In this document: piece by piece, positions 2,436-24,384 of the stretch | How positions within the stretch are numbered: the stretch's first letter is position 1 | How the letters are laid out: every line of letters begins with the position of its first letter | Origin: Candidatus Thorarchaeota archaeon | Lineage (GTDB): Archaea; Asgardarchaeota; Thorarchaeia; Thorarchaeales; Thorarchaeaceae | DNA: 32,000 nt | NCBI GenBank assembly: GCA_008080745.1 | Contig: SHMX01000005.1 | Location: 60,001 to 92,000, forward strand | Direction of reading: 5' to 3' | The notes under the pieces: model-generated | Database searches by the model: none | What the model saw: only the letters and a program-made list of their open reading frames with translations | What the model was told of the DNA's origin: nothing | Position numbers and translations under genes: made by a program

Positions 2436-4310
2436 CTATCTTCTTGGTTTGTCATCCAACAATCCGAGTCTTCTCAGTGTGGTATCGAATGGAATGCCAG
2501 TTTCTATATCCCACCCACGATATTCATAGTATTCGTCAAGCATCTGATTGAGTTCTACCACTTCTCCCTTATTCGGCCCTAATGGTGCTGGCTCGTCCGT
2601 AAGTCGTTTTGGTAACTGATCATCTTTTCGTGATATTCCCAATCTGATATTGAACAGCCGATTGAGATTTACGATTCTCTCTCCTATGGTCTGTAGTTCT
2701 TCCCGGGTAAAAACAAGTCCATTATGTATTCGGAGGGCAAGTGCAACATCTTCGTAATAGAATTCTGGAGGGATCTGTGTTCCATATTTACAAAGCCCCA
2801 CACTCTCAATCATGACCATATAGTCTTCACATTCCTTTACCATGATTCCTTTGTAGGTTGGATTCAGACGTTCTGCCATCTCTGGCAAGTATTCCTCACC
2901 AAATCGTTCTCTTATCTCATCGTCAAATCCCGCCTCATCAAGCACAGGAAACGAATAGAGATGATCAGCTCCTCTTGCAGCTGTTACTGCAGCTAATCCC
3001 ATAGATTTCTGAGCTCGTGGTTCTTGTCCGGCTATCTCTTGCTTCTTCACGGTCATAACGAATTTCTCTGTTCCCTTTCCAATCTTTTGAGCTGCGCGAT
3101 AGCTTCCCTCGGCCAAGACATCACCAAAACCTTCACGCATTGCTATCATCTTGGTCAGTTTCACCACTGTTTCATGATTCCCCCACGTTAGATCTATCCC
3201 TCCTGTATCTTCAGCAGTTAATAGACCCTCATCCCATGCTTCCATTGCCCAGGATATAGTAGCACCAAGTGATATCGTATCCATTCCATATTGGTTTGCC
3301 AAATGATGCGAGTAGAGTACAGATTCGACATTATCGTTCCCACAACGGGAACCTAATGATGATTGCGACTCAAACTCAGGAGATCCTCCCTCATAGCAGT
3401 ATGGTCCTGTGGGTACAGCAGTAAACCTTCCACAGCGTTGTAGACAACTCCAATCTGCTCTTGGTTTCACAAGATAATCTTTCGTGATGGTTTCACCGCT
3501 GATTGCTTCATAGCCGTCAAATACTCCTTGACGCATATTGTAGCTTGGAAGTCTTCCAATATGATGCATAAGTTCTACAAGATTTGTTGTTCCATATCGC
3601 GCACGTTCGGGGGTGAAGGGATTAGCAAGCATACGTCTGTAGAACTCATCCATATGCCTAAGGTAATCTATTGGTTCAGCTACCTCGATTTTACCCGTTC
3701 CCCGTACTGAGATTGCTTTTATTTTCTTTGAACCCATAACAGCTCCAAGACCCGAACGAGCTGATGCTCTATCTCTGTCATTCATCACTGCTGCAAACCG
3801 AACTAGGTTCTCACCGGCCTGTCCTATTGCTAAGACGCGGCTCTTTCTACCATATTTCTCTCTAAGATAATCATCCGTTTCAAAGACATCACTACCCCAT
3901 ATATCCTCGGCACTTTCCAGGGTAACATCAGAATCTCGGATATTCAGATAGACTGGATCTTTTGATGCGCCTGTAAATAATACCGCATCATATCCTGCAA
4001 GCTTAATTTCAGTACCCCAAAAACCAGCAGAATGACTCTCACCCCAGACATTGGTCAATGGGGATAAGGCTGCGACCACTATTCTTGATGCTTGAGGAAA
4101 CATGGATCCTGTCAATAGACCGGTTGCTATACCCAATACATTCTTGGGCGATAGAGGATCGATATCCGGTGGAATCTCATCGTATAACACTTTAGAGAGA
4201 TATCCTGCACCTAGAAGATACTTTTTTACAATATCTTCAGGTATCGGTCGTTTCTCTACTTCTCCTTTGGTTAGGTTGACCCAAAGAATCTCGCCACCTA
4301 CTCCTTTCAT
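2436..4310 (-). CDS. aor: Tungsten-dependent aldehyde:ferredoxin oxidoreductase family protein (WOR/AOR), copy 1
   Basis: VNLTKG...YLLG, SPLT..WGES, IGQAGENLVRFA, R.G.GAVMGSKKIKAI, GMDTIS, RGADHL, YYEYRGWD..TG.P. ATG at 4310 with SD GGAGG; the ORF track uses TTG at 4316. Confidence 0.95.
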   Translation of the reverse strand: MKGVGGEILWVNLTKGEVEKRPIPEDIVKKYLLGAGYLSKVLYDEIPPDIDPLSPKNVLGIATGLLTGSMFPQASRIVVAALSPLTNVWGESHSAGFWGTEIKLAGYDAVLFTGASKDPVYLNIRDSDVTLESAEDIWGSDVFETDDYLREKYGRKSRVLAIGQAGENLVRFAAVMNDRDRASARSGLGAVMGSKKIKAISVRGTGKIEVAEPIDYLRHMDEFYRRMLANPFTPERARYGTTNLVELMHHIGRLPSYNMRQGVFDGYEAISGETITKDYLVKPRADWSCLQRCGRFTAVPTGPYCYEGGSPEFESQSSLGSRCGNDNVESVLYSHHLANQYGMDTISLGATISWAMEAWDEGLLTAEDTGGIDLTWGNHETVVKLTKMIAMREGFGDVLAEGSYRAAQKIGKGTEKFVMTVKKQEIAGQEPRAQKSMGLAAVTAARGADHLYSFPVLDEAGFDDEIRERFGEEYLPEMAERLNPTYKGIMVKECEDYMVMIESVGLCKYGTQIPPEFYYEDVALALRIHNGLVFTREELQTIGERIVNLNRLFNIRLGISRKDDQLPKRLTDEPAPLGPNKGEVVELNQMLDEYYEYRGWDIETGIPFDTTLRRLGLLDDKPRR

Positions 4311-4312
4311 TA

Positions 4313-4801
4313 TCAAGCATCCTCCTTATCATAGAGTATATCTTTATGTTTTTCATGCAGTTCAGAAATCCGCCCCTCCGGATCTTTTTCCTTCAGATCT
4401 TCTTCTGAGGTCAACCAAATTGCATTTACTGGGCATCTTTCGACACACGCACCGCATTGAATACATTTGAATGCCTTTCCTGTGTCTGGGTGAATCCTAA
4501 TCGCAAAGTATGGACAAGCTTCAACGCATGCTCCAGTTCCATCACACCTCTTGTTGTTAACAATTACAACCCCCTTAGAGGTTCGCATAATTGCCTCATT
4601 TGGGCATGCCGTAATACAGGGTGCATCTTCGCAGTTTCTACAAAAGAGTGGGAAGTCTAGTCCTGGTTCTATTCTAACAGCTCGTACCCGCGCTCTTTCT
4701 GGACTTATCACTTTGTAGAATTTCATGCTACATACATTCACACAGATCATACATCCAGTACATATATGGGGGTCACCAATAACAAATCTCAATTCGCTCA
4801 C
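4313..4801 (-). CDS. Four-cluster iron-sulfur electron-transfer subunit (DmsB/HybA/NarH-like) partnering WOR copy 1
   Basis: CTGCMICVNVC, CRNCEDAPCITACP, CDGTGACVEACP, KCIQCGACVERCP; its stop lies 2 nt before the WOR ATG. Confidence 0.92.
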   Translation of the reverse strand: MSELRFVIGDPHICTGCMICVNVCSMKFYKVISPERARVRAVRIEPGLDFPLFCRNCEDAPCITACPNEAIMRTSKGVVIVNNKRCDGTGACVEACPYFAIRIHPDTGKAFKCIQCGACVERCPVNAIWLTSEEDLKEKDPEGRISELHEKHKDILYDKEDA

Positions 4802-6172
4802 CTATCTCTTCTCCTCTATTGTTCGCCCTCCCATGGGCTGAAATATTCCATGTCCGGGTTTAACAAGAATTCTGCCCTCTTCATATACTGGTACACCCCT
4901 GACCAATGTCATAAGTGGCACTCCTTTCATCTTCAAACCCTCATAAAGTGTCCAATCGCATTTGGATAGCATCATCTCAGCCGTTATCTTTTCCTCCTTG
5001 GTCTGGTCTACAATAACGATATCCGCATCCGAACCAACCTGTAATATACCCTTTTTTGGGTAGAGCCCAAATATTTTGGCTGGGTTCTTTGACGCAACTT
5101 GGAGAAGTCTTGGGTATGAGATACGATTTTTATTCAGACCCTCTGAGAGCAAAACACGAAGAATCATCTGAATTCCATCTACCCCTGCCCACGCTTGACG
5201 AATGTCATCTCTCCCCTCTTCCTTTTTTTCTATTGGACAGGGTGCATGGTCGCTTACGGTGATATCAATCATCCCTCGAAGCAATGCGGACCATAATTCC
5301 GCCTTATCTTGTTTGGACCTTAGAGGCGGATTCATTTTGCTTTTGGGTCCGATTCGATTCATCTCATCACGGTGAAACATAAGATGATGGGGACATACTT
5401 CCGTTGTGACCATGACTCCATTCAACTTTCCTCTCTCCACCTCACGAATGCCTTCTCTTGTAGAGATATGAGCAATATGCAGATGTCCGCCAGTCTTCTC
5501 AGCAATTCCAATGACATGTCTAACTGCAAGCTGTTCTGCCAAGTTTGGTCTTGATAAGGAATGACTGATGGGGGCATCCCATTCATTGAGCATGTCTTTG
5601 CTAAACTCATCTAGAACTCCTTGATCTTCACAATGGATGGTCACATGTCCTCCATTTACGGATACTTCGCTGAGAAGACGCGATATCACACCGGAGTTAG
5701 TATAGAATGGTTCACAGGTAAATGCTTTGAATGACGCCGCTCCGCGAGCAATCATCTCGGGAACAATTGGGTAGTTCTCAGCATTCATCATTCCTACATT
5801 GAAAGCAAAATCGACAATGGATAGGTTGGACCCATCTGCAATCTTTTCCTGTAACATATCTGGGGTATCCATCTGACTTACGAGTGGCATATCTACTATT
5901 GTGGTTACTCCTCCAGCCGCAGCAGCAAAGGAACCGGGGGTAAACTCTTCATGATCAAGCATTCCTCTGTCATGGATATGTGCATGTCCATCAATCAATC
6001 CTGGCATCACAATTTTCTGTTTGGCATCAATTACTCTATCAGCATCAGGTAGATGATTGTCGGTAGCAATTATAGATATGATACCATCACGGATACCTAT
6101 CCCTGCCTGAACAAGGCCCGATTCGAATAGCAATCTTCCATTTCTAATAACGATATCCACGGTTCTGCTCAT
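4802..6172 (-). CDS. Cyclic amidohydrolase, allantoinase/dihydropyrimidinase-like
   Basis: Binuclear metal motifs DGHAHI, carbamylated Lys in FKAF, HCED, HIAHIS, EVCPHHL, KMNPPLR, SDHAP. It lacks the HxHxR(EPG) arginine of dihydroorotases, and AWAGVDG resembles allantoinase WGGI.G. Confidence 0.85.
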   Translation of the reverse strand: MSRTVDIVIRNGRLLFESGLVQAGIGIRDGIISIIATDNHLPDADRVIDAKQKIVMPGLIDGHAHIHDRGMLDHEEFTPGSFAAAAGGVTTIVDMPLVSQMDTPDMLQEKIADGSNLSIVDFAFNVGMMNAENYPIVPEMIARGAASFKAFTCEPFYTNSGVISRLLSEVSVNGGHVTIHCEDQGVLDEFSKDMLNEWDAPISHSLSRPNLAEQLAVRHVIGIAEKTGGHLHIAHISTREGIREVERGKLNGVMVTTEVCPHHLMFHRDEMNRIGPKSKMNPPLRSKQDKAELWSALLRGMIDITVSDHAPCPIEKKEEGRDDIRQAWAGVDGIQMILRVLLSEGLNKNRISYPRLLQVASKNPAKIFGLYPKKGILQVGSDADIVIVDQTKEEKITAEMMLSKCDWTLYEGLKMKGVPLMTLVRGVPVYEEGRILVKPGHGIFQPMGGRTIEEKR

Positions 6173-6187
6173 TCTAAGGTTTTCCTC

Positions 6188-6478
6188 CTATTGTGGATTT
6201 CCGCCGCCAATGGGGGGGAAAATTGCAACAGCATCCCCATCTGAAAGTTTTGTGTCATATCCATCTAGGGTTTCAATCCGTTTTCCGTTTATCATACAAG
6301 AGAAGAATCGTTTCAGTCTTGTAGTACCCTCTTGGAACACTGTTTCTTGAAATTCCTTGTCATATTGTTTCTTCAGCTTTATGAGAAGTTCTCCTACTGT
6401 GTCTGCTTCCATGTCAACCTTTCCTGTTCCTGCTACACTTCGAACAGTTGCAAAGAACTTCACCGTGACTTTAGCCAA
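6188..6478 (-). CDS. moaD: MoaD/ThiS/SAMP-type ubiquitin-like sulfur carrier with a 4-aa extension after the GG motif
   Basis: VTVKFFATVR...INGKRI...LSDGDAVAIFPPIGG-GNPQ*. Start is TTG at 6478 or at 6487. Confidence 0.9.
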   Translation of the reverse strand: MAKVTVKFFATVRSVAGTGKVDMEADTVGELLIKLKKQYDKEFQETVFQEGTTRLKRFFSCMINGKRIETLDGYDTKLSDGDAVAIFPPIGGGNPQ

Positions 6479-6504
6479 ATCCAACACCTACTAGACAAAG
6501 GCTT

Positions 6505-6518
6505 GAAGATGTTTTAAC
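6505..6518 (+). promoter_or_regulatory. Putative BRE/TATA element in the divergent moaD / pfkB intergenic region
   Basis: gaagatgttttaac: a purine-rich run followed by TTTTAA. Similar elements at 12829-12841 (gaaaatgtttatc) and 26225-26236 (caagattataat). Confidence 0.3.
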
Positions 6519-6602
6519 AGTTCGGAAATGTTATTGAAGTCGTTCCATAGACATATAGGGAATAATCTCTATTTGCTCTACTGTAATTCTGGAGTTGATA
6601 GC

Positions 6603-7496
6603 GTGGAGATAGTTGTCGTTGGTCATCTGAGCAGGGACCTTATCATTACCCCGGATTTGACAAGAGAGAGTCTCGGTGGTGCTCCAGCATATGCGATGAT
6701 TGCCCCTGCCATTGGTGCTCTCGGAGCGGGTATTGTGTCTCGAATAGGTTCAGACTTTGAACAGTCATATTTGAACGCACTTTACAGGTCTGGCCTTGAT
6801 CTCACGGGACTGAGAACTAGTCAAGACAAGTCCACCCGGTTTATCAATATCTACAACGCTGAGGGCGAGCGTACTCAACGAATAGAGTCAATCGCACCTC
6901 CTATTCATGGTTATGATTATTTACCAAAACATCTCTTGGCATCTATCTTTCATTTTTCTCCTCTTACCCCTGATGAGATTCATATCTCCTGTATTGAAAC
7001 TGCAAAGAGTTCGGGAGCATTGGTTTCTCTGGATGTTCAAGGATATTTACGGAATATTTCGGGGGAGAATGTCACATTATCTCGTTGGGAGTATCCCGAT
7101 GAAGTACTGAAATTTGTCGATATTGTCAAGGCCGAGGAATCCGAGGTGAAGTTCATATTTGAAGCGAAGACGGAGGTTTCAGCCGTATCTCGCATTTTGA
7201 GCCTGGGTCCTAGAGTTGTAATTATTACACGTAGCCAGAAAGGTTCAACTATCTACACCAGAAATAATCACGTTGATATACCACTAGTGTTGGCTGACAA
7301 GTTCATTGACAGTACAGGGTGTGGGGATGTCTATTCTATCGGATTTCTACTCTCTTACATGCGAACCGGAGATGTAAGTAAGGCTGGACTCTTTGGAGCA
7401 ACGTGTGCGTCTTTCAACTTGGAATCAATTGGCCCATATAATCCTCCCTCTATTGAACAGGTGGAGGAACGAATGCGAACCTATCTCCATGGCTGA
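6603..7496 (+). CDS. PfkB/ribokinase family carbohydrate or nucleoside kinase
   Basis: VVVGHLSRD, GGAPAYA, G.VSRIGSDF, VIITRSQKGS, DSTGCGDVY (PfkB signature variant). GTG at 6603 follows a GGAG SD; the ORF track starts at 6528. Confidence 0.88.
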   Translation: MEIVVVGHLSRDLIITPDLTRESLGGAPAYAMIAPAIGALGAGIVSRIGSDFEQSYLNALYRSGLDLTGLRTSQDKSTRFINIYNAEGERTQRIESIAPPIHGYDYLPKHLLASIFHFSPLTPDEIHISCIETAKSSGALVSLDVQGYLRNISGENVTLSRWEYPDEVLKFVDIVKAEESEVKFIFEAKTEVSAVSRILSLGPRVVIITRSQKGSTIYTRNNHVDIPLVLADKFIDSTGCGDVYSIGFLLSYMRTGDVSKAGLFGATCASFNLESIGPYNPPSIEQVEERMRTYLHG

Positions 7497-7638
7497 CAGG
7501 TGCTAACCAATTTTTTGATAGTAACAATTATGTTATTATGCTGTCGTCTTTGTTACGCTACATGAATGCCCTCAGTGTAACTATAATCTTAATTTACACA
7601 AATGATTTTTATATCATGGTTTATAATCTGTTACTAGG

Positions 7639-10407
7639 GTGTTGTTGGTGCTACGGAGTAAAGGTGTAGTTATACTCATTATTCTTGTTTCAGCTCTTTT
7701 CTTGTTTCTATCAATAGTTGGGAATAACTGTGATAATTCAATATATTCTTCAGAAGACATTTCTGAAACTGATTCGTTTCCCATGAAACTGAACCATCCA
7801 AGTTGGTACACTGATGAAGATTTTGATAATATGACCGCTCCAATATGTGATATGTCCGGTAATACTTTGGATGCCAGTGACGATGATTGGCCAACTTATG
7901 ATGCTATATTTACCTACTTCTACAATAATCAAAAGCATTTTGCCTTTATTTCTATGGCATGGGATGGACAAGACCTCTATTTCTATATAAGTATAAATGA
8001 TCCGAATAATTTGGAAACTGATACGGGATTTATGTTTGCTATCTTTATTCAATTTCCCGATCTATCTACAGACGATTTCTATATTGAGGTTACCGATTTC
8101 GAGAATGGTATATACAATACTGGAGGTATAAGTTCGGATGAAATTACATACGATAAGGATACAGGGAATCCAAGGATTGAATGTGAATATGATTTGAGCC
8201 CCTCTATCGTTGCTGGAACTGATTTGGGAATTTGTTTCTATTATCACGACTATGAATCAGATATTATAGACACATTTCCTATGTACTATGATGGAGGAAC
8301 AGAACCGGATCAATCGTATGGTACAGAATGGGCGCAATTACATTTGTTAGATGACACAGAGAGCCCACAAGTGGCACTGCAAGAACCTACCACCGAGGGG
8401 AACTACAATTATACATACGACACTCGCGAAATTGAATGGACTGCTTCAGATAATTATGCTATCGACCACTTTGATATCTTGAACAATAACAGTCTCCTTC
8501 AAGCGGGACTATCATCTGGTATACGGAGTTATAACATACCCGATTTGGGAGAGGGCGTACATAACATCACAGTAATTGTTTATGATACAAGAGATAATTG
8601 GGATACTAGTTATTTTTGGTTGGTTGTTGACAAAACCTCTCCAATTATGGATATAATCAGTCCTGTGAATTTATTCAATTGCACCTCACAATACGAATGG
8701 TTGAATTGGTCGGTAAGTGATAGTCTAACTTGGGTAGATTCGATATTTGTTTTTGATAATGAAACCAATGTTTCGGGTCAATTATCTGGAGATGTAACTT
8801 CATTTGAGTTGAGTCTTAGTCAAGGTCTTCATAATATCACAATAGTCGCTTATGATGTAGTTGGTAATATGGATACAGATACCATTTGGATTCGACGAGA
8901 TGGAATCACTCCCAATATTGAATTTCTTACTCCGGTGGAATTCGCATATCTTGATAGTTCTGAGGTTACTGTTTCTTGGATCGTGAACGATTCTAATCCC
9001 AGTTCTGATATTTATAGGACTCTTGTCTATCTTGATGAGCTTTTAAATAAAAGCAAACTTGGTATTATCTCGGAGGTTGATTGGCTATTATTTGAGGGTG
9101 AACATAATGTGACTATAGTTGTTGAGGATTATGCTGGAAATATTGAATCTTCAACCATTATGTTCTATGTAGATTTAAGCAATCCAGATATACAAATTAT
9201 AAAACCCTCTGCTGATATATATCTTTCAAATTCGTCTTATTCATTCATAATTGAATGGACTGCTTCGGATAATGTAGCTATTGACTACTTTGAACTATGG
9301 ATCGGAAGTACTTCCTATATTTTCGAATCAGATGTTCGCATGTATGAACCAGCGACTATAACATCAACGACCGCCTACACATTGAAGATCTTTGATAAAG
9401 CTGGTCATGTTGATTCAGATGGATTTGTTGTGTATTTTGATTCTTCTGGAGATACTTCTCCTCCCTTGCTATCAATTGAAAACCCTGTAAACGAAACCTA
9501 TTGTAATAGTGATGTTCTACTTAGTTGGGTTGCGAGTGATGCAGAATGCGAGATACGATATGTGAACATTAGCTTAGATGGTACTCTAATTCATTCAACA
9601 ACTGAATCTAGTGGTTCATATACTCTTGAATTTGAAGAAGAAGGAGTTCACAATCTATTTGTTATCACATGTAATGATATTGGACTAACAAAGAATAGAA
9701 GTATAGTCATTTTCTATGATATAACCCCTCCAACGATTACTATCCAATCTCCGAACAACAACCAGATTTTGATAAATTCCAATTTTCTAGTCACATGGAT
9801 AGGTGATGATGAAGGAATTATTGGCTCAATAGATTACTATGAAATTTTTCTTGGTTCTTTATCTCTTCGTCAGACAGAAAGTAACACTTACGCTTTTTCC
9901 GACATTTCCGATGGAGAATACTCTATTCGTGTAATTATTCATGATAAAGCAGGAAATATCGCTGAAGACTCTGTTACTATATGGGTGGATGTGGGTACAC
10001 CGACTCTCAGTCTTGTTAACCCAGCTAATTCTTTCACCCACAAAAAATCTGATGGAAACCTTATCCGGATTTCTTGTTTGGCTCAAGATAGTGCATCGGT
10101 ATCTTCTGTTGTCTTATATTTGACTGGGATTGATAATGAATATTCAAAAACATTGAATTTTTCATTTAATCCATCCACTGGTCATTGGGAAGTAACTTGG
10201 GACATCACAGAGGTTGAATATGGTTTATATTATCTGAATGTAACTGTACATGATTTGGCAGGCCATTCGAATTCGATAATTATAACTTCTGAATTAGTAC
10301 CTCCTACTCCTCTTGAGATACTGAAGGCAAATGCATTTTTCTTTACAGTAATCGGAGGCAGTGTCACGGTAATCGGTTTCATATTTAAGAGAACCCGAAA
10401 AGAGTAA
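7639..10407 (+). CDS. Membrane-anchored surface glycoprotein: signal/TM, DOMON/CBM9-like domain, 7 Ig-like repeats, C-terminal TM plus basic tail
   Basis: Hydrophobic N-terminus; AWDGQDLYFYISIND (DOMON/CBM9-like); seven roughly 90-aa repeats D.t.P.i.i..P...W..sD...G.h.i.i...D.aGn; about 18 NxS/T sequons by manual count; C-terminal FFFTVIGGSVTVIGFIF-KRTRKE. Confidence 0.85.
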   Translation: MLLVLRSKGVVILIILVSALFLFLSIVGNNCDNSIYSSEDISETDSFPMKLNHPSWYTDEDFDNMTAPICDMSGNTLDASDDDWPTYDAIFTYFYNNQKHFAFISMAWDGQDLYFYISINDPNNLETDTGFMFAIFIQFPDLSTDDFYIEVTDFENGIYNTGGISSDEITYDKDTGNPRIECEYDLSPSIVAGTDLGICFYYHDYESDIIDTFPMYYDGGTEPDQSYGTEWAQLHLLDDTESPQVALQEPTTEGNYNYTYDTREIEWTASDNYAIDHFDILNNNSLLQAGLSSGIRSYNIPDLGEGVHNITVIVYDTRDNWDTSYFWLVVDKTSPIMDIISPVNLFNCTSQYEWLNWSVSDSLTWVDSIFVFDNETNVSGQLSGDVTSFELSLSQGLHNITIVAYDVVGNMDTDTIWIRRDGITPNIEFLTPVEFAYLDSSEVTVSWIVNDSNPSSDIYRTLVYLDELLNKSKLGIISEVDWLLFEGEHNVTIVVEDYAGNIESSTIMFYVDLSNPDIQIIKPSADIYLSNSSYSFIIEWTASDNVAIDYFELWIGSTSYIFESDVRMYEPATITSTTAYTLKIFDKAGHVDSDGFVVYFDSSGDTSPPLLSIENPVNETYCNSDVLLSWVASDAECEIRYVNISLDGTLIHSTTESSGSYTLEFEEEGVHNLFVITCNDIGLTKNRSIVIFYDITPPTITIQSPNNNQILINSNFLVTWIGDDEGIIGSIDYYEIFLGSLSLRQTESNTYAFSDISDGEYSIRVIIHDKAGNIAEDSVTIWVDVGTPTLSLVNPANSFTHKKSDGNLIRISCLAQDSASVSSVVLYLTGIDNEYSKTLNFSFNPSTGHWEVTWDITEVEYGLYYLNVTVHDLAGHSNSIIITSELVPPTPLEILKANAFFFTVIGGSVTVIGFIFKRTRKE

Positions 10408-10486
10408 ACTCTATCTGATTCAATGAGTTAACAAAAGGACTTTCAAAGCATTTTTCATTAGTATATCTCTCTGAGATTGTTAGTAG

Positions 10487-11680
10487 GTGACTGTAATGTT
10501 CGAAGATCTCGACCCACTTATGGAAGACGTTGGAATTGACGCATTGGTTTGTGAAGGAAATGCCTTTGAGGTTCCTGATATTGTCTGGCTGACTGGATTT
10601 CGCTCGACAGACTCAGTGATATATTTCAAAAACCAAGGTGAAAAGGGGCTGATTGCAACAGGGTATAATACCCTCGACCGTGCAAAAAAGGAGAGTTCGG
10701 TTACAGAATACCATGATCTGACTCCAATTTACAAAGATCTAAGACGAGAGAAAAAACGAGCCTATGAACATCCAGATGTCATCTATGGAGAGATTCTCAC
10801 TAGCCATTTCTCAGGTACGGTGATAGGTGTGCCAGACCACCTACCCGCAAGAGTACTTGTGGCTATTCAGCAACTTGGATATGACGTAAAAGTCGTTCCA
10901 AAACTTGTGAATAAGGCTCGTGCCACTAAAACAAAAGAAGAGATTGAAATCATCAGAAAGGCTGGTCATGCTACAACCTCAGCTATCAAGCGTGTTGTTG
11001 AGATGATTAAAGATGCAGACGTGGGTGAGAAGGACTCGCTCGTTCTTGATGGCACTCCTCTGACAGTTGGTCGAATCAAACTGGCCTTGGAACACTTCTT
11101 ACTCGATCAAGGTGCCGAGTCTGCAGAAGATGCAATTGTTGCCGTTGGTGACAAGGGGTTTGACTGGCACTATCTTGGAAAGTCCGATGATCATCTCAAA
11201 GCAAATGTACCCATAATTATGGATGTCTTTCCTCGTCTGAAACATGAGCGGTATGTTGCGGACGTTACTCGTACCATTGTGAAGGGTCGGGTTGACAAAA
11301 CTCTTCAGAATATGTTTGACGCCGTACACAGTGCTCTTGCCGCTTCAATAGAGGCTCTAACAGATGGTGCGAAAATCGATGATGTGAATATGGCATGTTT
11401 CCAGACCCTAAAACGTCATGGATACGATTCTAGTAGGCTGAATCTTGATGCCGAAGAGGGTATGACTCATGGTCTCGGACACGGAATTGGTCTTGAGGTG
11501 CATGAAGAACCAAGTATGTATCGATATGAGGAACATTTTGAAGCTGGACATGTTGTGGCAATTGAACCTGGAGTATATCTGAAGGCAATTGGTGGTGTCC
11601 GTATAGAGAACGATTATGCAGTCACTAAGAATGGTGCAAAGCGCCTAACAACTGATTTGGAAGACCTGATCTTTGTATAA
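10487..11680 (+). CDS. Xaa-Pro aminopeptidase/prolidase (peptidase M24)
   Basis: Metal ligands in IIMDVFP, YVADVTRT, HGLGHGIGLEVHE, IEPGVY, GVRIEND. The start may be ATG at 10496 (GGTGA SD). Confidence 0.93.
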   Translation: MTVMFEDLDPLMEDVGIDALVCEGNAFEVPDIVWLTGFRSTDSVIYFKNQGEKGLIATGYNTLDRAKKESSVTEYHDLTPIYKDLRREKKRAYEHPDVIYGEILTSHFSGTVIGVPDHLPARVLVAIQQLGYDVKVVPKLVNKARATKTKEEIEIIRKAGHATTSAIKRVVEMIKDADVGEKDSLVLDGTPLTVGRIKLALEHFLLDQGAESAEDAIVAVGDKGFDWHYLGKSDDHLKANVPIIMDVFPRLKHERYVADVTRTIVKGRVDKTLQNMFDAVHSALAASIEALTDGAKIDDVNMACFQTLKRHGYDSSRLNLDAEEGMTHGLGHGIGLEVHEEPSMYRYEEHFEAGHVVAIEPGVYLKAIGGVRIENDYAVTKNGAKRLTTDLEDLIFV

Positions 11681-11681
11681 T

Positions 11682-12776: not shown

Positions 12777-12877
12777 ATTGAATTCGACAAAATAAGAATT
12801 GTCTATCGTTGCTTTTAGGTTACAAAATGAAAATGTTTATCTGATTTTAGATTGAGAAGTGTTTCTAGGGGAGAATT

Positions 12878-13231
12878 ATGTCAATTTCTCAAAAAGCACA
12901 TATGACCATCGGTGATGTTGTCACCCGACTAAAGGATGATAGATTAACTCCATCCATGGTGAAGAAGTATATGCGTGTGATTGAGCGCGAAAGGTTCATT
13001 TGCGAAGAACGAAGGGGTGCCTATGACCCTCTCACACTTGACCTGCGAAATCTGCGTCATTTCTTAGAACAAAAGATTCTTCTACTTCTTGAGATGGAAG
13101 ATGTACATCAAGCTAATGAAACACCAGAAAAGATTCTGGAGAACTTCATTATAAACCGTATTTCTACTAAGACTTTAGCAAGAATACTGATACATGCCAG
13201 TCCTCGTGTGATTCAGAAGATGCTGGAATAA
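12878..13231 (+). CDS. Hypothetical all-alpha protein
   Basis: 117-aa ORF filling the gap between divergent and convergent neighbours, with a GGGGAG SD and a TATA-like element upstream. No motif recognised. Confidence 0.65.
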   Translation: MSISQKAHMTIGDVVTRLKDDRLTPSMVKKYMRVIERERFICEERRGAYDPLTLDLRNLRHFLEQKILLLLEMEDVHQANETPEKILENFIINRISTKTLARILIHASPRVIQKMLE

Positions 13232-13233
13232 AT

Positions 13234-15168: not shown

Positions 15169-15650
15169 TATTCGCTTCCCTCCTGAATACCAACTTTAGT
15201 TGATACCTGCTTCATCCCAATCTGCCTTTCTAAATTTCCCTCTCCTTCAGTTTCCAGTCGGATAACACCATACTCACATGCTTTTATGCAGGCCGGATCA
15301 CCATCGCACAGGTCGCACTTTATTGCTTTTCTGGACACAGGGTCTATTACAATTCCACCATAAATACAGGCAGAAACACAATTTCCACAACCTATGCAAA
15401 CATCATTATTCACTGTGAGCGATCCAATAGAATTGGGGATTATTGCATTAGTCGGACATGCGTCAGCACAAAGAGGCTCTTGGCACTGAAGGCAGACCAT
15501 TGGTATAATCAATCCCTTATGCTCATCTTTGAGAATCTGTATTCTTGCCCTAATAGGATTGAATGTGGATGTCTTTCTTGCTGAGCATGCTAGCTCACAA
15601 TTTCTACAACCCGTACAACTTTTTGCATCGATGACTAGGAGTTTTTTCAA
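15168..15650 (-). CDS. Four-cluster [4Fe-4S] electron-transfer subunit partnering WOR copy 2
   Basis: CTGCRNCELAC, CLQCQEPLCADACP, CIGCGNCVSAC, KCDLCDGDPACIKAC; TAATG overlap with the WOR start. Confidence 0.92.
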   Translation of the reverse strand: MKKLLVIDAKSCTGCRNCELACSARKTSTFNPIRARIQILKDEHKGLIIPMVCLQCQEPLCADACPTNAIIPNSIGSLTVNNDVCIGCGNCVSACIYGGIVIDPVSRKAIKCDLCDGDPACIKACEYGVIRLETEGEGNLERQIGMKQVSTKVGIQEGSE

Positions 15651-15829
15651 GGGTGTCGGCTCCTTATTCAGCAGGTTTTCAATAATCCTCTTCTCTCCAC
15701 TTTAATGTGTTGTTATGCTTATTTTGACTAGGTACTAAATTCCTCACGGAAAACTATTAGAGTACCCTTTACCTCATCCCTCTCAAGTCAATCAAAGCTG
15801 TTCTTTGACAATATTACTTTCGAGTGTAA

Positions 15830-17626
15830 ATGATGAATAAAATTCACTCCATCGACTCTCCCAGAGATTCCTTACAAAGGTCTCAATTCCACAAAGTAGC
15901 AGATAGTATGCGGATTGCAATACTCGAGTTTAATCTGGATTTGGAATTGATATATGCTAATCCTGTCGCCAAGAGCATCTTTGGTTTAGATGATGTGGAT
16001 ATAACGAATCCCATTCCCTATTCTGATTTGGTTGTTTCAGAACAGGTGAAGATAATCAAGTCAGCATTTCAGAGATTTCTATCTGGAGAAAAACCTCGAT
16101 CAATGACAGTACGAGTCATTGCGAAACATGGTGTACATATACCCTTCCAAGTTATTCCCGAACTGGTTTTTCATAATGGAGCGCCTGTTGGTCTGGTTGT
16201 CTATGCCATGGACCTCTCTCGAAGGATTGTAATCAACCAACGGATTATGAACCGAGCAGAATACTTCAAGCTTATCGTAGAATATTCTAGCTTCACTGGT
16301 ATCCTAATTGTTGACGATCAATATCGTTTTGACTGGGTGAATGACAAGCTCTGTGACATAATTGGTTACACCCGAGAGGAATTGCTATCTATGGATTTCA
16401 GGGAGGTCTTACATCCTGATAGTCTGGATCTGACTGCTGATAGGTATAAGCGTCGCCAACAAGGTGAGACCCTACCAGCAACATATGAAATACAAGCAAT
16501 TTCTAAGGATGGGACTATCAAAGACCTGATGCTTACCAGTAGAGTCTACAAGAGTGGAGATGAACTCAAAAGTGTTGCACAGGTATTAGACGTTACTGAG
16601 CAAAATCGGCAGCGTCAAGCACTTGAAAACAGTGAACGGAGATACCGAACTCTTATCGAAACCATAATCGCTGGACTGGGTATTGATGATACTGATGGTA
16701 AGATAATCTATGCTAATGAAACTCTCAGTAAGATGACTGGATACTCTATTGACGAACTGGTTGGGATGAAGGGATCCTCCCTGGTCTATGAACTTACTCC
16801 TGATCGAATTCAAGCTAGACGAGATGGTAAATTCGAACAATATGAGGCACATCTTGTACACAAGTCGGGAGATCTAGTACCAGTAATTGTTTCAGCTTCA
16901 CCTCTCATGGATGCTAATGATGATTTTGAGGGTTCTTTTGCAATATTTACCGATATTTCAGAGCTCAAGTCTGTAGAAGATGAAGTACGCTTTCTACTTG
17001 ATTTGATTCTTCATGACATTGGAAATCAATTACAGTTGATAATTGCTGGTAGTGGTCTGATTGCGGAGGATGCTCCAGAGGATATTCTTCTCCGTGCGAA
17101 AGAGTACATTTTGGACGGGGCACAACGCAGTCTTGATTTAATACGAAAAGTACGTGGTGCTGAGAAGGCAAAAAGCGAAGTTCTGAAACCAGTTGATATA
17201 TCCGAGGTGATTGATGCAGAATCAATGCTGCTTTGGAAACAACACGGAGTTATGCCCGACATCGAGGGCATTCCTGAATCCCTTATGGTCTTAGCGGACA
17301 GTGCTGTTAATCATCTCATTTGGAACATTCTGGAAAATTCAGTCAAGCACAATCCTGACCCAGAACCGCAGGTGTGGATTCAGGGGGCAATTGAGGACGA
17401 CCATTTAATTTTAGAAATAGCCGATAATGGACCGGGATTGGATGAACGCAAGCGGGATCAGCTCTTTGATGTTCAAAGAAGGTATGGCGGGGTGGGCCTG
17501 CATTTGGTACGAAGACTTGCTAAGAAATACTGTACACTTCCTGAAGTCTGTGACCGGGTAGAAGAGAATCCTGAGGAAGGGCTTTGTATTAGAATACGGT
17601 TCCATATAGCGCAGGCTGAACCATAA
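15830..17626 (+). CDS. Cytoplasmic sensor histidine kinase with three PAS domains
   Basis: PAS starts YANPVAKSIFG, WVNDKLCDIIGYTREEL, YANETLSKMTGYSIDEL; H-box ILHDIGNQLQ; N-box NILENSVKH; DNGPGL; GGVGLHLV. No TM segment. Confidence 0.92.
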   Translation: MMNKIHSIDSPRDSLQRSQFHKVADSMRIAILEFNLDLELIYANPVAKSIFGLDDVDITNPIPYSDLVVSEQVKIIKSAFQRFLSGEKPRSMTVRVIAKHGVHIPFQVIPELVFHNGAPVGLVVYAMDLSRRIVINQRIMNRAEYFKLIVEYSSFTGILIVDDQYRFDWVNDKLCDIIGYTREELLSMDFREVLHPDSLDLTADRYKRRQQGETLPATYEIQAISKDGTIKDLMLTSRVYKSGDELKSVAQVLDVTEQNRQRQALENSERRYRTLIETIIAGLGIDDTDGKIIYANETLSKMTGYSIDELVGMKGSSLVYELTPDRIQARRDGKFEQYEAHLVHKSGDLVPVIVSASPLMDANDDFEGSFAIFTDISELKSVEDEVRFLLDLILHDIGNQLQLIIAGSGLIAEDAPEDILLRAKEYILDGAQRSLDLIRKVRGAEKAKSEVLKPVDISEVIDAESMLLWKQHGVMPDIEGIPESLMVLADSAVNHLIWNILENSVKHNPDPEPQVWIQGAIEDDHLILEIADNGPGLDERKRDQLFDVQRRYGGVGLHLVRRLAKKYCTLPEVCDRVEENPEEGLCIRIRFHIAQAEP

Positions 17627-17677
17627 TTGTTATGATGTACTTGTTCGTATAGAATACTCCTATTGGAGGTACATCCT

Positions 17678-19075
17678 TTGGAATCCTTTGAATCAATTCT
17701 TATCAAAAATGGCTACATTCTAACCCTTGACCCAAAACGCAGAATTCTCCCAAAGGGCAGCATTCGTATCGAAGGGAACAAGATTGTGGAGGTCTCAAAG
17801 ACACCCTCCAAACTGCCCCAGGCTGAATTAGAGATAGATGCCACTGGAAAGATTGTCATGCCGGGTCTAATTGACACCCATGTACATCTGGCACAGGCAT
17901 TGATTCGAGGATGTGCAGATGATGTATCACTTGTTGATTGGTTGAAAAACTATGTCTGGGTACTACAAGGAAATTTCACTCATGAGGATGGAAAGGTTTC
18001 CGCTGAACTATGTATGGCTGAGATGATTCGGACGGGAACTACAGGATTTATTGAATGCATGATCCACTCTCGTTATGGATTTGATGGAATTGCAGAGTCT
18101 GTTGAGAATATTGGTATGCGAGCTGCTCTTTCGAAAATAATCATGGATTCCACTGGTTATGCAGATAGCCCTGATATTATGTACCCTGGAATGATTGAAT
18201 CTGCAGATGCTTGTCTAGCAGAAACTGAATCCATGCTAAAGAAATGGCAATGGGCGGCGCATGGACGTATCCAAGTCTGGTATGGTCTGCGGTCTCTTGG
18301 TGCTGTCACTCCTGATTTGTTCAAGACCGTCGTGGGGCTAGCTGATGAACACGATACCCGAATGACCATGCATCTTGGAGAAGTACAGGATGATGTCAGA
18401 TATGTACGGGAGAATCACAATACAAATCTTGTTGGTTTTGCTCGAAAGATGGGTTTACTGGGTGAGAATATGGTGTTTGCTCATGGTATTCACTTTGAGG
18501 ATGAAGAGATTCAGGAACTTGCTGCTACCCAGTCCAATATCTCTCATTGTCCCGCAAGTAACATGAAATTGGCCTCTGGATTTGCAAAGATTCCTACGAT
18601 GTTAGAATATGGTGTTCCGGTTTCGCTGGGTTGTGATGGTGGACCTAGTAACAATGCCTATGATATGATTCGAGAGATGCGCTTGGCTGCTCTTATTCAC
18701 AAACCCCATGCAAATGATCCAACAGTAGTCAGTGCAGAAGAAGTAATCGAGATGGCAACTTTAGGTGGAGCAAAAGCATTGGGTCTTGGTGACAAACTTG
18801 GTTCTCTGGAAACGGGAAAATTTGCTGATCTGATTCTGGTTGATATGCACAGACTGAATCTCACACCAAAAACCAATCCTGTATCTAACCTTGTCTATGC
18901 TGGTTCTGGCTATGATGTCGATACGGTCATTGTTAATGGACGGATACTCTTGCAAGAGAAAAAACATCTGACAGTAGATATAGAGGAAGTTATGGTTAGA
19001 GCAGAGAAACATGCTGCAGAGTTAGTAGAGCGAGCTGGAGTGGAGATAGTACCAAAATGGCCCATCTCCAACTAA
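17678..19075 (+). CDS. Metal-dependent amidohydrolase/deaminase of the TRZ/ATZ-MTA/SAH deaminase-SsnA family
   Basis: MPGLIDTHVHLAQ, MHLGE, HCPASNMKLASG, LGCDGGPSNN, GSLETGKFADL. TTG at 17678 follows GGAGGT; the ORF track starts at 17663. Confidence 0.9.
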   Translation: MESFESILIKNGYILTLDPKRRILPKGSIRIEGNKIVEVSKTPSKLPQAELEIDATGKIVMPGLIDTHVHLAQALIRGCADDVSLVDWLKNYVWVLQGNFTHEDGKVSAELCMAEMIRTGTTGFIECMIHSRYGFDGIAESVENIGMRAALSKIIMDSTGYADSPDIMYPGMIESADACLAETESMLKKWQWAAHGRIQVWYGLRSLGAVTPDLFKTVVGLADEHDTRMTMHLGEVQDDVRYVRENHNTNLVGFARKMGLLGENMVFAHGIHFEDEEIQELAATQSNISHCPASNMKLASGFAKIPTMLEYGVPVSLGCDGGPSNNAYDMIREMRLAALIHKPHANDPTVVSAEEVIEMATLGGAKALGLGDKLGSLETGKFADLILVDMHRLNLTPKTNPVSNLVYAGSGYDVDTVIVNGRILLQEKKHLTVDIEEVMVRAEKHAAELVERAGVEIVPKWPISN

Positions 19076-21066: not shown

Positions 21067-21093
21067 ATCTATACACCTACTATACTCGTTCTT

Positions 21094-21870: not shown

Positions 21871-21907
21871 CCTTTTTGCTCCTTATTTTCAGTGTCCGTT
21901 ATTCATT

Positions 21908-23284
21908 TTACTTTGTCGAACTAGTCAAGTCATCGTGATAAGCAGCGATTGTCTTTCGTACCAGTCCCCATGAGACCGTTCGTATCGTTGAGAAGTATTT
22001 TTCCAAGTCCAAATCGCTATCTTTGAGAAGCTTTGACAATTCTTTGTCCTTTTTCACCATCTCAAGTAATCCCTTGCCCTTCTTTCCTCCTTCTGATAAC
22101 ATATCTCTGAGTTTCTCATGAGCCTTAGGCCTCTCCATCCCTGCCTTGGTCAGCTCTGTAATGACATACTCGCTTAGTATCTGATTGTTGGACAATTCGA
22201 GATTACGTTTAATCGCTTCTTCGTCTATCTCAAGACCCTCTATCACTCGTTTCATTTCTCGAACAAGGTAATCCACTAGAATGAATGCCTGTGGAAACAC
22301 AAAACGTTCTGTTGACGAGTGTGATATATCTCGTTCTTCCCAGCTCACCACATTCTCTAATGCTGGTTGCACTAGACTGCGAACAAAACGAGCAATACCA
22401 CTGATCTTCTCGCAGGTGACAGGATTCCGTTTATGCGGCATAGCTGATGAGCCAACCTGTTTACCTTTTGCAAAAGGTTCGTAGGTTTCAGCAATCTCGG
22501 TTCTTTGAAGATTTCTCAGGTCGGTAGCAATCTTATCAAGAGATGATGCGAGATTTGCAAGAGTACATACGACCTCAGCATGCCGATCTCGCTGAGTTAT
22601 CTGGGTTGTAACAATAGGAAAGTGAAGTCCCAGTTTTTTCAGAACTTTTTCCTGCATTAACAATCCCTTAGGTCCCAATGCCGCATGGCTTCCGGTGGCA
22701 CCAGCTAGTTTTCCGACAATGACTCTTTCCCGGGCAGCTAAGAGTCGTCTTCGATGCCGTCTGATTTCATCAAGCCAGACTGCAAATCTCAGCCCATACG
22801 TTATTGGAACCGCATGTTGTCCATGTGACCTTCCAACCGCAACCAGATCCTTTGTTTCAACTGCTCGATTCACCACCGCCATGCACAGCTCCTCCACCTT
22901 TGGCATAAGCACATCGAAGGCATCCTTGAATTGAAGTGCAAGAGCTGTGTCTTTTACATCATTACTGGTTAACCCAAAATGCACCCATCTGGCTCCAGGT
23001 CCTTGACACTGCTCTGCGATGGCTTCAAACAAGGCTGCAATATCATGCCGCGTTCTAGCCTCTATCTCCATTGTTCGTTCCAGTGTCACGGTTTCTGGGA
23101 TGGCTGCTATGACAATATCTCCAGCTGCATCAGCAGGAATTAGGCCAATCTCCGATTGAACCTCTGCTACTGTTGCCTCTATCTTCAACCAGAGTTTGTG
23201 TCTGTGTTCCTCTTCAAAAATCTTGATCATATCAGGATGACCATATCTTCCATAATCAATGGGACATACTGGCATTTGGTCCAA
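21908..23284 (-). CDS. purB: Adenylosuccinate lyase
   Basis: RYG..M..IF, HFGLTSND, GRSHGQHA.P.T.G, GAT(G)S, fumarate-lyase signature GSSAMPHKRNP, ERDISHSSTER. The start is probably the ATG of MPVCP. Confidence 0.95.
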   Translation of the reverse strand: MDQMPVCPIDYGRYGHPDMIKIFEEEHRHKLWLKIEATVAEVQSEIGLIPADAAGDIVIAAIPETVTLERTMEIEARTRHDIAALFEAIAEQCQGPGARWVHFGLTSNDVKDTALALQFKDAFDVLMPKVEELCMAVVNRAVETKDLVAVGRSHGQHAVPITYGLRFAVWLDEIRRHRRRLLAARERVIVGKLAGATGSHAALGPKGLLMQEKVLKKLGLHFPIVTTQITQRDRHAEVVCTLANLASSLDKIATDLRNLQRTEIAETYEPFAKGKQVGSSAMPHKRNPVTCEKISGIARFVRSLVQPALENVVSWEERDISHSSTERFVFPQAFILVDYLVREMKRVIEGLEIDEEAIKRNLELSNNQILSEYVITELTKAGMERPKAHEKLRDMLSEGGKKGKGLLEMVKKDKELSKLLKDSDLDLEKYFSTIRTVSWGLVRKTIAAYHDDLTSSTK

Positions 23285-23385
23285 TCTCCATGTTGAATCC
23301 TGAACTACTCCCTGATATGGTTTGCTCCCAAGCTATCAGAATAACTCTTCATGATTCTAACATCTAAGAAATCTATTATATTGGA

Positions 23386-24384
23386 ATGATGTTGAATAGA
23401 TTAGGCTCAATTAAAATGATTAATTCCTATTCCGATCCCGACATCCTCAAGAGAATACTAGGCGTTGCAAAATCAATCAGGAACCGATCTCTTCCTGAGA
23501 TTCTAAGAAACCGTCAAAATATAAAGAATGTTCACAGTCTTCTCTATAATCCTGCACCTTATGAATTACAATTAGCCCAATCTGTATGTAGTTTACTCTC
23601 CATTGGGTTGGGCGAGTTTGGATTACCCACTTTGTTTACTCCCTCTGCAGATGAAATAATCATGGAATTTAATCTAGTCGCTAGAGCCTGTGATTTGCTT
23701 CTCAGTTCCTTTTACGACCAGTCAAAATTAGGTAATGGACGCTCAATCACTTTGAAATTTGCAGAAAGAACATCTACCCCTCTCATTTCTCTGGGTGACG
23801 AGATACACTCTTTTCAATCAGCACTTGGTTATCTCTTTCCAATTTTTCAACGTCTTGGAGAACTTCAAAATAGAGATATCGTAATCTCTTGGGCTTTTGA
23901 TAATCGATTCTCACTACCTTCTGTTCCTCAGAGTCTGCTTTTGTTGGGATCTATCTTAGGCTCTAATGTTCAAGTAAGGGCTCCACATGATTTTCCCTTA
24001 CTTCGTCGTGTGGTCCGGGACTCGAAGGAGGTTGCAAAGGAATCGGGTGGCTCTGTTGAAATTATTCACACTCCACCAGATGATATACAGCAAGCTGATG
24101 TGGTATTTGCTTTCAACTGGTGTAGCTTGAATGAGTTTATTCGTCCTGAGAGAAATGCTGAACTGGCCAAGAGCTATCGTGATTGGCATATCTCTCAAGA
24201 GGCTCTTGGGCGCGCATTATTCATGACCGAACCCCCCGTAAGAACTGGTATTATCGCAGATAGAAGTATCATTGATAGTCCATCTAATCTCACTCCAAAT
24301 TGGCTGGAGTCTAGGATTCACATTCTGTTGGCATCCATTGCTACATTATTTGACTCTGATTTTTCTATTAACGCTCTGGTATGA
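23386..24384 (+). CDS. Aspartate/ornithine carbamoyltransferase-fold protein (YgeW/N-acetylornithine transcarbamylase-like), predicted catalytically inactive
   Basis: The C-terminal half matches the YgeW/AOTCase pattern (ISWAF...SVPQSLL, AKESGGSVEI, ADVVFAFNW, DWHI, DSPSN...ESRIH). The STRT, HPxQ and HCLP motifs read APYE, HSFQ and TEPP. Confidence 0.75.
   Translation: MMLNRLGSIKMINSYSDPDILKRILGVAKSIRNRSLPEILRNRQNIKNVHSLLYNPAPYELQLAQSVCSLLSIGLGEFGLPTLFTPSADEIIMEFNLVARACDLLLSSFYDQSKLGNGRSITLKFAERTSTPLISLGDEIHSFQSALGYLFPIFQRLGELQNRDIVISWAFDNRFSLPSVPQSLLLLGSILGSNVQVRAPHDFPLLRRVVRDSKEVAKESGGSVEIIHTPPDDIQQADVVFAFNWCSLNEFIRPERNAELAKSYRDWHISQEALGRALFMTEPPVRTGIIADRSIIDSPSNLTPNWLESRIHILLASIATLFDSDFSINALV

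Follow-up and report, generated by a model that had tools for sequence, protein, structure and literature searches.

How gut bacteria break down purines without oxygen was worked out in 2025, and their route has been described as dependent on (seleno-)molybdenum hydroxylases (10.1101/2025.05.19.654654; 10.1101/2025.04.24.650524). XdhD makes 2,8-dioxopurine, which is reduced by YgfK or by a ferredoxin-type PF01180 protein, UacX (Li et al. 10.1101/2025.05.19.654654, PMC12507026; Liu et al. 10.1101/2025.04.24.650524); SsnA and HyuA open the rings, and YgeW/YqeA or UacY, then YgeY and YgeX, complete the breakdown (10.1101/2025.05.19.654654; 10.1101/2025.04.24.650524). The C. difficile variant comprises XdhD, UacX, SsnA, HyuA and UacY (10.1101/2025.05.19.654654; 10.1101/2025.04.24.650524). 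SsnA is the marker of the pathway, and its partner UacX is a PF01180-type, ferredoxin-dependent reductase (10.1101/2025.05.19.654654). Tungsten, AOR and archaea are unmentioned in Li et al. (10.1101/2025.05.19.654654) and Liu et al. (10.1101/2025.04.24.650524). Here we describe a window of 32,000 nucleotides (nt) from a Candidatus Thorarchaeota archaeon, the core of which (the island, 2436-19075) could encode, at a likelihood that we place a little short of even, a tungsten-dependent archaeal variant of the reductive urate/2,8-dioxopurine pathway, with modules of AOR-family tungstopterin oxidoreductases (WORs) replacing the Mo-hydroxylases. In the literature searched, neither a WOR-linked purine cluster nor an SsnA cluster from Asgard archaea was described.

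The window (G000:C5:60001-92000) belongs to an assembly, G000, of 3.16 Mb in 19 contigs that is 98% complete. Genes were called over its whole length from a listing of open reading frames (ORFs) and from Pfam and NCBIfam profile matches, and these recovered, each in its place, all the gene families named in a first-pass annotation made from the letters alone. The island shares with the urate/2,8-dioxopurine clusters a PF01180-type Fe-S flavin reductase that, like UacX, has no NAD(P)H/FAD module, a HyuA-like hydantoinase, a TRZ/ATZ enzyme of the SsnA/GuaD superfamily, and polyferredoxins 33-35% identical to YgfS; SsnA is present in sister Asgard clusters, and OTC-family genes and carbamate kinase occur in related loci and elsewhere in the genome. 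It differs from them in that no Xdh was found genome-wide, two WorL/WorS modules and a MoaD being present instead, and in that SsnA, YgeX and a convincing YgeY were not found in the assembly. Moreover, the TRZ/ATZ enzyme is MtaD/DadD-like, genes for a PfkB, an M24 hydrolase and a PAS kinase are added, and the host is an archaeon.

The WOR modules themselves resemble two described tungsten systems, AorABC(DE) of Aromatoleum aromaticum, whose operon aorABCDE ends with MoaD-like genes (PMC6365974; PDB 8c0z), and WorABCSL of Acetomicrobium mobile (PMC12318220, PDB 9mqx). In the island as in these systems, the large subunit is an AOR-clade W-pterin protein, the gene just upstream of it encodes a small subunit of the 4x[4Fe-4S] type, the operon contains MoaD-like maturation genes, and a third redox module follows the WOR gene. 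However, the third module of the island is a DPD/UacX-like FMN protein and not the FAD-containing AorC or BfuABC, the operons of the island are set among ring-opening amidohydrolases, and the first cluster cysteine of WOR1 is replaced by aspartate in Thorarchaeota and in the Asgard family f12. Class II benzoyl-CoA reductase BamB-BamC (PDB 4z3w) also combines an AOR-family W enzyme with an Fe-S partner and is a precedent for aromatic-ring reduction, but WOR1 and WOR2 are far nearer AOR proper and no Bam partners are present; a BamB-like ring reductase is not favoured for this proximity to AOR.

The flavoprotein, in turn, shares with PydAc of Clostridium chromiireducens (PMC7332683) and with E. 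coli PreA/PreT a DHO_dh-family FMN TIM barrel fused to a [4Fe-4S] ferredoxin domain. It differs from both in having EFSTHY in the place of the catalytic Cys loop and no encoded PreT partner, from PydAc in having one ferredoxin domain (8 Cys) and not two, and from PydAc/PreA in its genomic partners, which are SsnA, Xdh or WOR and not PydB/PydC. Since it carries no NAD(P)H/FAD domain, its electrons must come from a low-potential carrier.

Enzymes of the island

The WOR1 operon, on the reverse strand, begins with a MoaD/SAMP-like sulfur carrier (6188-6487; TIGR01687 moaD_arch, 77 bits, cut-off 49.5), followed after 15 nt by a cyclic amidohydrolase of the hydantoinase/allantoinase type (HyuA-like; 4802-6172; NCBIfam, structure match 1gkr), at 0 nt by a polyferredoxin (WorS/AorA-like, 4x[4Fe-4S]-type; 4313-4801; several Fer4 families) and, with a 4-nt overlap, by WOR1, a large WorL-type subunit (2436-4316; AFOR_N E 7e-74, AFOR_C E 7e-126). 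On the same strand, a second WorS/AorA-like polyferredoxin gene (15168-15650; Fer4 families) overlaps WOR2 (13234-15168; AFOR_N and AFOR_C) by 1 nt. This tight spacing argues for an operon organisation of both units, as does, on the other strand, the distance of 36 nt between the genes of a PAS sensor kinase and of the TRZ/ATZ amidohydrolase. The two small subunits are polyferredoxins of the HycB/WorS/AorA type, encoded directly upstream of, and overlapping, their WOR genes. That of WOR1 is 33% identical to E. coli YgfS and has an orthologue beside WOR1 in families f12 and f15 (f-numbers label the Asgard families in our set of 300 genomes, f1 being the Thorarchaeota family), while that of WOR2 is 35% identical to YgfS and matches, in NCBIfam, the N-terminal parts of PadI, AegA and YgfT. 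The MoaD-like protein ends in PPIGGGNPQ (window 6188-6220), with residues beyond the diglycine; therefore, a free GG end would need processing.

The solved structures nearest to WOR1 and WOR2 are those of AOR proper (9mqx_D WorL, 1aor, 9g7j and 8c0z), with FOR, WOR5 and BamB more distant; the bit scores are 397-434 to AOR (1aor, 9mqx_D) and 220-243 to BamB. Equivalents of the catalytic Glu313 and His448 are kept in both proteins (motifs PE[FY]E and RGADH), and WOR2 retains all four cluster cysteines (CxxCxxxC...C). The first [4Fe-4S] cysteine of WOR1 is an aspartate (RADWSCLQRC) in Thorarchaeota and f12 and a cysteine in f15, the orthologues of loci L059 and L064 being among the sequences compared. 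Aspartate ligation is known for other Fe-S clusters, so the cluster of WOR1 may still form. WOR1 also has asparagine for the first aspartate of the pterin motif DxxGxD, as do several other aligned WORs. A third Fer4+WOR pair is located on another contig (G000:C1:91420-93799; L003:8406-10800). The gene of a branched-chain aminotransferase is about 600 nt away from it and that of an NADP-glutamate dehydrogenase about 2.4 kb, a classical amino-acid-fermentation setting. The orthologues of this pair (53-61%) are MoaD-Fer4-WOR units within the purine-type clusters of f15 and f18.

The PreA/UacX-like flavoprotein, encoded downstream of WOR2 (11682-12776, reverse strand; Pfam, NCBIfam), consists of a DHO_dh FMN barrel and a single C-terminal ferredoxin domain with eight cysteines (2x[4Fe-4S]), scores below the PreA and PyrD cut-offs in Pfam and NCBIfam, and has no PreT/GltD-type or PyrK partner adjoining its gene. 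The first-pass annotation had called it a non-canonical PreA-like reductase, and this is borne out when its sequence is aligned to those of the DPD of pig, class 1B DHODH, the PreA of E. coli and the PyrD of this same genome: EFSTHY stands where the catalytic-Cys loop NxSCP would be, and about 12 residues are deleted. NxSCP is kept in the genome's own PyrD, in a Thorarchaeota paralogue and in E. coli PreA. Among the 80 relatives retrieved from metagenomes with a profile built on Asgard sequences, E[LF]S[T]HY is present in all 80 and NxSCP in none. We rejected the idea of a dead enzyme, since the proteins with E[LF]STHY make up a large subfamily that is well conserved and in which the motifs for FMN and for the clusters are intact. 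Some Asgard genomes have a second, "canonical" flavoprotein with NxSCP, encoded near a HyuA-like amidohydrolase (loci L070, G004:C46, and L077, G131:C93) and in f22 beside SsnA as well; hence, two kinds of reductase coexist in the phylum.

Neighbourhoods of the E[LF]STHY subfamily were counted in the 44 distant metagenome loci that have 6 kb or more of flanking sequence and carry no taxonomic label. An SsnA-like gene is present in 29 of the 44 and an Xdh-type Mo-hydroxylase in 17, of which 16 also have SsnA. Many of the Xdh-type loci encode, in addition, YgeY (58-60% identical to that of E. coli), OTC-family genes and carbamate kinase. These neighbours are the genes that make up the reductive uric acid/2,8-dioxopurine pathway, and the kinship with the bacterial yge/ygf/ssnA/hyuA cluster that had been proposed for this locus holds, the flavoprotein subfamily sitting in SsnA/Xdh purine clusters. 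As in that pathway, a ring reductase of the YgfK/UacX type is encoded with amidohydrolases, the comparison with C. difficile UacX being by description only.

The cyclic amidohydrolase scores 339 bits to allantoinase, 327 to DHOase and 313 to dihydropyrimidinase, below the NCBIfam equivalog cut-offs. Its best solved structure is an L-hydantoinase (1gkr), followed by allantoinases and D-hydantoinases among the closest, and it keeps all the metal ligands (HxH, the carboxylated Lys, His, His and Asp). With 28% identity to E. coli HyuA over the full length, it can be called HyuA-like at the family level only. Its clade is Thorarchaeota-specific, the next relatives in a search of representative sequences being at most 43% identical; a query of genome contigs gave only Thorarchaeota matches, and the best 120 homologues of this protein, as well as those of the PreA-like protein, are from Thorarchaeota almost throughout. 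Relatives at 43-45% identity stand beside SsnA and a PreA-like gene in five metagenome loci (L101-L103, L111 and L123). Contig C2 carries the canonical pyrC (332 bits to pyrC_multi) as well as pyrD and pyrK, the latter two as a pair; the amidohydrolase and flavoprotein of the island are therefore extra paralogues, and a housekeeping pyrC/pyrD identity was rejected.

The TRZ/ATZ amidohydrolase (17663-19075, forward strand; Amidohydro_1 E 1e-71) had been annotated as a TRZ/SsnA-like deaminase. The TRZ/ATZ family stands, but the protein is nearer MtaD/DadD than SsnA, with NCBIfam scores of 421 bits to 5'-deoxyadenosine deaminase (cut-off 522) and 218 bits to SsnA (cut-off 444). It is the sole close copy in the genome. 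Among the 300 Asgard genomes, orthologues were found in f1 (63/76), f12 (14/19), f15 (1/4), f18 (1/1) and f6 (1/1) and in no other family; that is, they are restricted to the families with the WOR-linked cluster. We accordingly rejected a universal MtaD/DadD, for which such a phyletic pattern would be unexpected.

Conservation across Asgard lineages

In 20 Thorarchaeota loci, representing 16 genera, synteny extends over the whole block between WOR1 and the TRZ/ATZ gene, with 55-90% amino-acid identity and local insertions notwithstanding. The amidohydrolase abuts Fer4-WOR1 in 16 of the 20, the other four having insertions of 1.3-3.5 kb, and the PreA-like gene is present in 18. The flanks (MvhD, ABC and purB) are often syntenic in Thorarchaeota too; since these are unrelated genes, synteny within the family is by itself weak evidence.

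Other Asgard families, and metagenome contigs, also preserve the linkage, with a changed gene order and with flavoproteins that are about 50% identical. Four genomes of f12 carry, in this order, two OTCases, an MtaD-like gene (54%), a MoaD, an SsnA-like gene and a Fer4-WOR2 (55%)-PreA-like (55%)-MoaD string, with WOR1 (63%)-Fer4 nearby. The f15 cluster is a co-directional string with gaps of at most 57 nt, SsnA-MtaD-like-PreA-like-Fer4-MoaD-WOR-Fer4-WOR1, plus a divergent Fer4-WOR2, and smaller versions exist in f18 and f6. The WOR1 orthologues of f12 and f15 are 62-64% identical to ours, MoaD-like genes accompany the WORs in f12, f15 and f18, and each cluster has two or three distinct WOR paralogues. 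Between WOR2 and the PreA-like gene there are 14 nt in G004 and G019, and the two genes abut in f12. In our window, this gap is 457 nt and is filled by a 117-codon ORF with no family match (12878-13231, forward strand, from the ORF listing), conserved at 64% in a sister genome and at 25-33% in a few others, which may be spurious or a young gene.

The MtaD-like gene adjoins SsnA in f15 and is separated from it in f12 by a small MoaD-like gene. The second amidohydrolase of f15 is a true SsnA (455.6 bits, equivalog cut-off 444), and that of f12 has SsnA as its best match (372 bits). Of the 76 Thorarchaeota-family genomes, 64 have an SsnA-like gene, whose identity to the SsnA of f15 is about 53%.

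Because the linkage persists outside the family through rearrangement, it goes beyond chance, and the core (2436-19075) is a conserved functional island and not a chance neighbourhood. The synteny comparison that the first-pass annotation had proposed shows the core genes co-occurring in relatives of several families, and its caveat that the genes might be co-located by chance is answered for the core by the linkage under altered gene order.

Xdh, WORs and the chemistry of the island

The first-pass annotation had found neither Xdh nor NAD(P)H-linked subunits in the island, and so did we; for Xdh this extends to the whole of G000 (98% complete), where no Mo-hydroxylase of this type (PF02738) was detected. 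In a survey of PF02738 across the 300 Asgard genomes, in which the positive controls matched, the domain was found in 0/76 genomes of f1, 0/19 of f12, 0/1 of f18 and 1/4 of f15, and in 26/28 of f5, 19/21 of f22 and 9/11 of f14. Family f5 has an AmidoA-like gene, SsnA and a PreA-like gene of the same flavoprotein subfamily, with Xdh 3-4 kb off. Genomes of this family have two Xdh paralogues, which in G049 and G092 flank the AmidoA-like/SsnA/PreA-like trio, as they do in one metagenome locus (L153). Of the 44 metagenome loci, 17 have only Xdh, 7 have only WOR, and none has both.

In a maximum-likelihood tree of 92 flavoprotein sequences, the WOR-linked ones fall in one clade (41 rows, SH-aLRT 99), in which 26 are WOR-linked and 1 is Xdh-linked, while the sister group contains 17 Xdh-linked and 0 WOR-linked flavoproteins. 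We conclude that Xdh and WOR were exchanged on one or a few occasions and that the outcome was long kept; counts over related genomes are non-independent.

From these data, we infer that the island degrades a purine-type ring reductively. The TRZ/ATZ amidohydrolase would deaminate or hydrolyse the incoming purine, and the two WorL+WorS modules, matured with the MoaD-like carrier, would replace XdhD/DOPDH and XDH, adding or removing ring oxygens and exchanging electrons via their polyferredoxins. The UacX-like FMN/[4Fe-4S] flavoprotein would then reduce (dearomatise) the ring and the hydantoinase-like amidohydrolase would open it; in most relatives SsnA, linked or unlinked, would also participate. 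Replacement of the Mo-hydroxylases by WORs is suggested because these lineages have no other candidate maker of the substrate of the reductase, and because two or three WORs are kept, as Xdh-type clusters keep several Xdh paralogues. The specific proposal that WOR1 and WOR2 with their polyferredoxins are purine hydroxylases/dehydroxylases, doing the jobs of XDH and 2,8-dioxopurine dehydrogenase in archaea free of Mo-hydroxylases, is tentative, and we hold it with low confidence.

Several observations weigh against this interpretation as a whole. SsnA, the pathway marker, was not found in G000 at a threshold of E<=1e-80. In Thorarchaeota it is unlinked, standing alone and far from the island in the four loci examined (G001:C96, G004:C29, G020:C5 and G243:C1), and it is missing from the seven WOR-linked metagenome loci. 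The G001 contig with SsnA has no nucleotide counterpart in G000 (blastn), where the gene is either lost or simply unassembled. In the genome, no match to YgeX reached its cut-off, no convincing YgeY was found (best match 27% identical), and neither was an NCS2 nucleobase permease. Of the genes that had been suggested as worth looking for outside the window, carbamate kinase was recovered (contig C4, 370 bits, above cut-off), unlinked to the island, and the transporter was not. Also unlinked is an OTC gene of the cluster type on contig C8, which shares 49% identity with that of f12 and is divergently paired with a CN-hydrolase of the nitrilase/ureidopropionase superfamily (G000:C8:8032-10066; L004:6033-8066). 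Moreover, the complementarity of Xdh and WOR reflects few independent events, with long retention through rearrangement and not repeated convergence. We know of no AOR-family enzyme for which hydroxylation of a heterocycle has been demonstrated, and found none in the literature searched. Finally, both WOR1 and WOR2 resemble ordinary AORs in sequence, down to the catalytic Glu and His, so that a role in electron input could be equally possible. The suggestion of the first-pass annotation that the WORs do the ring redox chemistry is therefore only half sustained: the modules do stand where relatives have Xdh, but their sequences fit electron input just as well.

Electron input is the alternative that survives best, and we consider it a possibility of the same tentative kind. 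The pathway would be the same or similar, but the WorL+WorS modules would be plain aldehyde oxidoreductases, oxidising perhaps a downstream intermediate and delivering low-potential electrons through the polyferredoxin to the [4Fe-4S] clusters of the UacX-like reductase, as a new three-part WOR complex with the flavoprotein in the role of AorC or of the BfuABC "plug". The f12 order Fer4-WOR2-PreA-like-MoaD mirrors aorA-aorB-aorC-aorD/E, with the flavoprotein at the AorC position, and WorSL modules couple to differing partner modules (PMC12318220). The f6 PreA-like protein, without an Fe-S tail, is encoded directly beside a WOR, and the WOR-linked flavoproteins form a clade of their own, as would be expected from co-adaptation with a physical partner. 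Ring reduction by YgfK/UacX is thermodynamically unfavourable (Li et al. 10.1101/2025.05.19.654654), so a low-potential donor makes sense. Together with the AOR-like sequence and catalytic residues of the WORs, these points speak for electron input. Against it, no recurrent aldehyde-forming enzyme was found in WOR-type loci, the sole recurrent unmarked gene being threonine synthase, although this is weak evidence. Electron input also leaves unexplained the origin of the dioxopurine in lineages without Mo-hydroxylase, the mutual exclusion of WOR and Xdh, and the retention of two or three WOR paralogues per cluster.

We consider it improbable that the substrate is instead another cyclic amide or N-heterocycle, for which pterins, hydantoins, or pyrimidines degraded through a Pyd-like route would be candidates. 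With pyrimidines, the reductase and the dihydropyrimidinase-like amidohydrolase would be followed by further hydrolases, with a WOR oxidising malonate semialdehyde. The island does pair a dihydropyrimidinase/hydantoinase-like enzyme with a DPD-like reductase in an assembly in which no SsnA was found, the frequent lack of SsnA from WOR-type metagenome loci points the same way, and extended Pyd clusters are known to include a ferredoxin-dependent PydAc and steps that handle aldehydes (PMC7332683); the CN-hydrolase of the ureidopropionase family beside the cluster-type OTC would fit as well. However, the reductase is without the catalytic Cys loop of DPD, PreA and class 1 DHODH and has one Fe-S domain against the two of PydAc, and no beta-alanine aminotransferase was found within the island. 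The subfamily of the reductase is, besides, overwhelmingly linked to the purine signature of SsnA, Xdh, YgeY, OTC and carbamate kinase, and a true SsnA is present in sister Asgard clusters.

An assortment of unrelated housekeeping genes (pyrC-like, pyrD-like, MtaD and amino-acid-fermentation AORs) held together by inherited Thorarchaeota synteny is very improbable: implausible flanks (MvhD, ABC transporter, purB) are equally syntenic within the family and the genes lie on both strands with an Ig-repeat gene interrupting them, but linkage in other families and metagenomes in a different order and at about 50% identity largely refutes it, canonical pyrC, pyrD and pyrK are present elsewhere, and the MtaD-like gene follows the phyletic pattern of the cluster and not a universal one.

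Accessory genes, flanks and implications

The PfkB, M24, PAS kinase and TRZ/ATZ genes are on the strand opposite to the WOR operons. The PfkB-family kinase (6528-7496, forward strand; PfkB E 3e-22, no NCBIfam match near cut-off) is syntenic in all 19 Thorarchaeota loci of sufficient length and absent from the f12, f15 and f18 loci, and the M24 hydrolase (prolidase/creatinase fold; 10487-11680, forward strand; Peptidase_M24 E 6e-42) directly follows it in most relatives; both are Thorarchaeota-specific additions and not part of the cross-family core. In our genome, the two are separated by the gene of a 922-aa Ig-repeat protein with tandem Big_7 and Big_13 domains (7639-10407, forward strand; Pfam), which has the lowest G+C of the window (0.36) and looks like an insertion specific to this genome. 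The PAS sensor histidine kinase (15830-17626, forward strand; PAS domains and HATPase_c) ends 36 nt before the TRZ/ATZ gene, a pairing kept in most Thorarchaeota loci that is outside the cross-family core, and is a candidate regulator of the island. Together with PfkB and M24, it may be a lineage-specific accessory.

To the right of the TRZ/ATZ gene are an ABC-2 exporter, purB, an OTCase-like gene, a radical-SAM gene and HypC. For two of these genes, included in the locus by the first-pass annotation, a place in the island is not supported. One is purB (21908-23284, reverse strand; 463 bits, cut-off 326), the sole adenylosuccinate lyase of the genome, above its equivalog cut-off and hence housekeeping. 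The other is the OTCase-like gene (23386-24384, forward strand), proposed as YgeW-like: an OTCase-type match does exist, but it is weak and degenerate, restricted to the C-terminal Asp/Orn-binding domain (E 1e-11) with no match to the carbamoyl-phosphate domain, and the gene is not in the cross-family core. A radical-SAM gene lies 6 nt downstream of it (window 23386-25542). A part in the island is not supported for MvhD (138-680, reverse strand, left window edge), which adjoins the island in Thorarchaeota loci only, or for HypC (26269-26505, forward strand; N-terminus MCLAVP). The right end of the window (26526-31998) is occupied by a cell-envelope glycosylation run of a sugar-1-phosphate nucleotidyltransferase, a GT2, a 694-aa GT87-like membrane protein and GT4/GT1 genes.

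Our results suggest that Asgard archaea, and relatives found in sediment and peat metagenomes, have a route related to the purine pathway of gut bacteria that lacks a Mo-hydroxylase and has tungsten AOR-family modules in the same operons. Either a reaction class new to the AOR family or a new complex of WorSL plus a flavoprotein is to be expected from this, a hypothesis directly testable with few recombinant proteins. If the WORs do act as purine hydroxylases or dehydroxylases, they would be the first tungsten enzymes shown to act on the C-H or C-OH bond of an N-heterocycle, and tungsten would have replaced molybdenum by way of an unrelated protein fold. If the proposed route is real, nucleobase fermentation would join the physiology of Thorarchaeota, and the abundant "AOR" genes of sediment archaea, now read as markers of amino-acid/aldehyde metabolism, would need reinterpretation.

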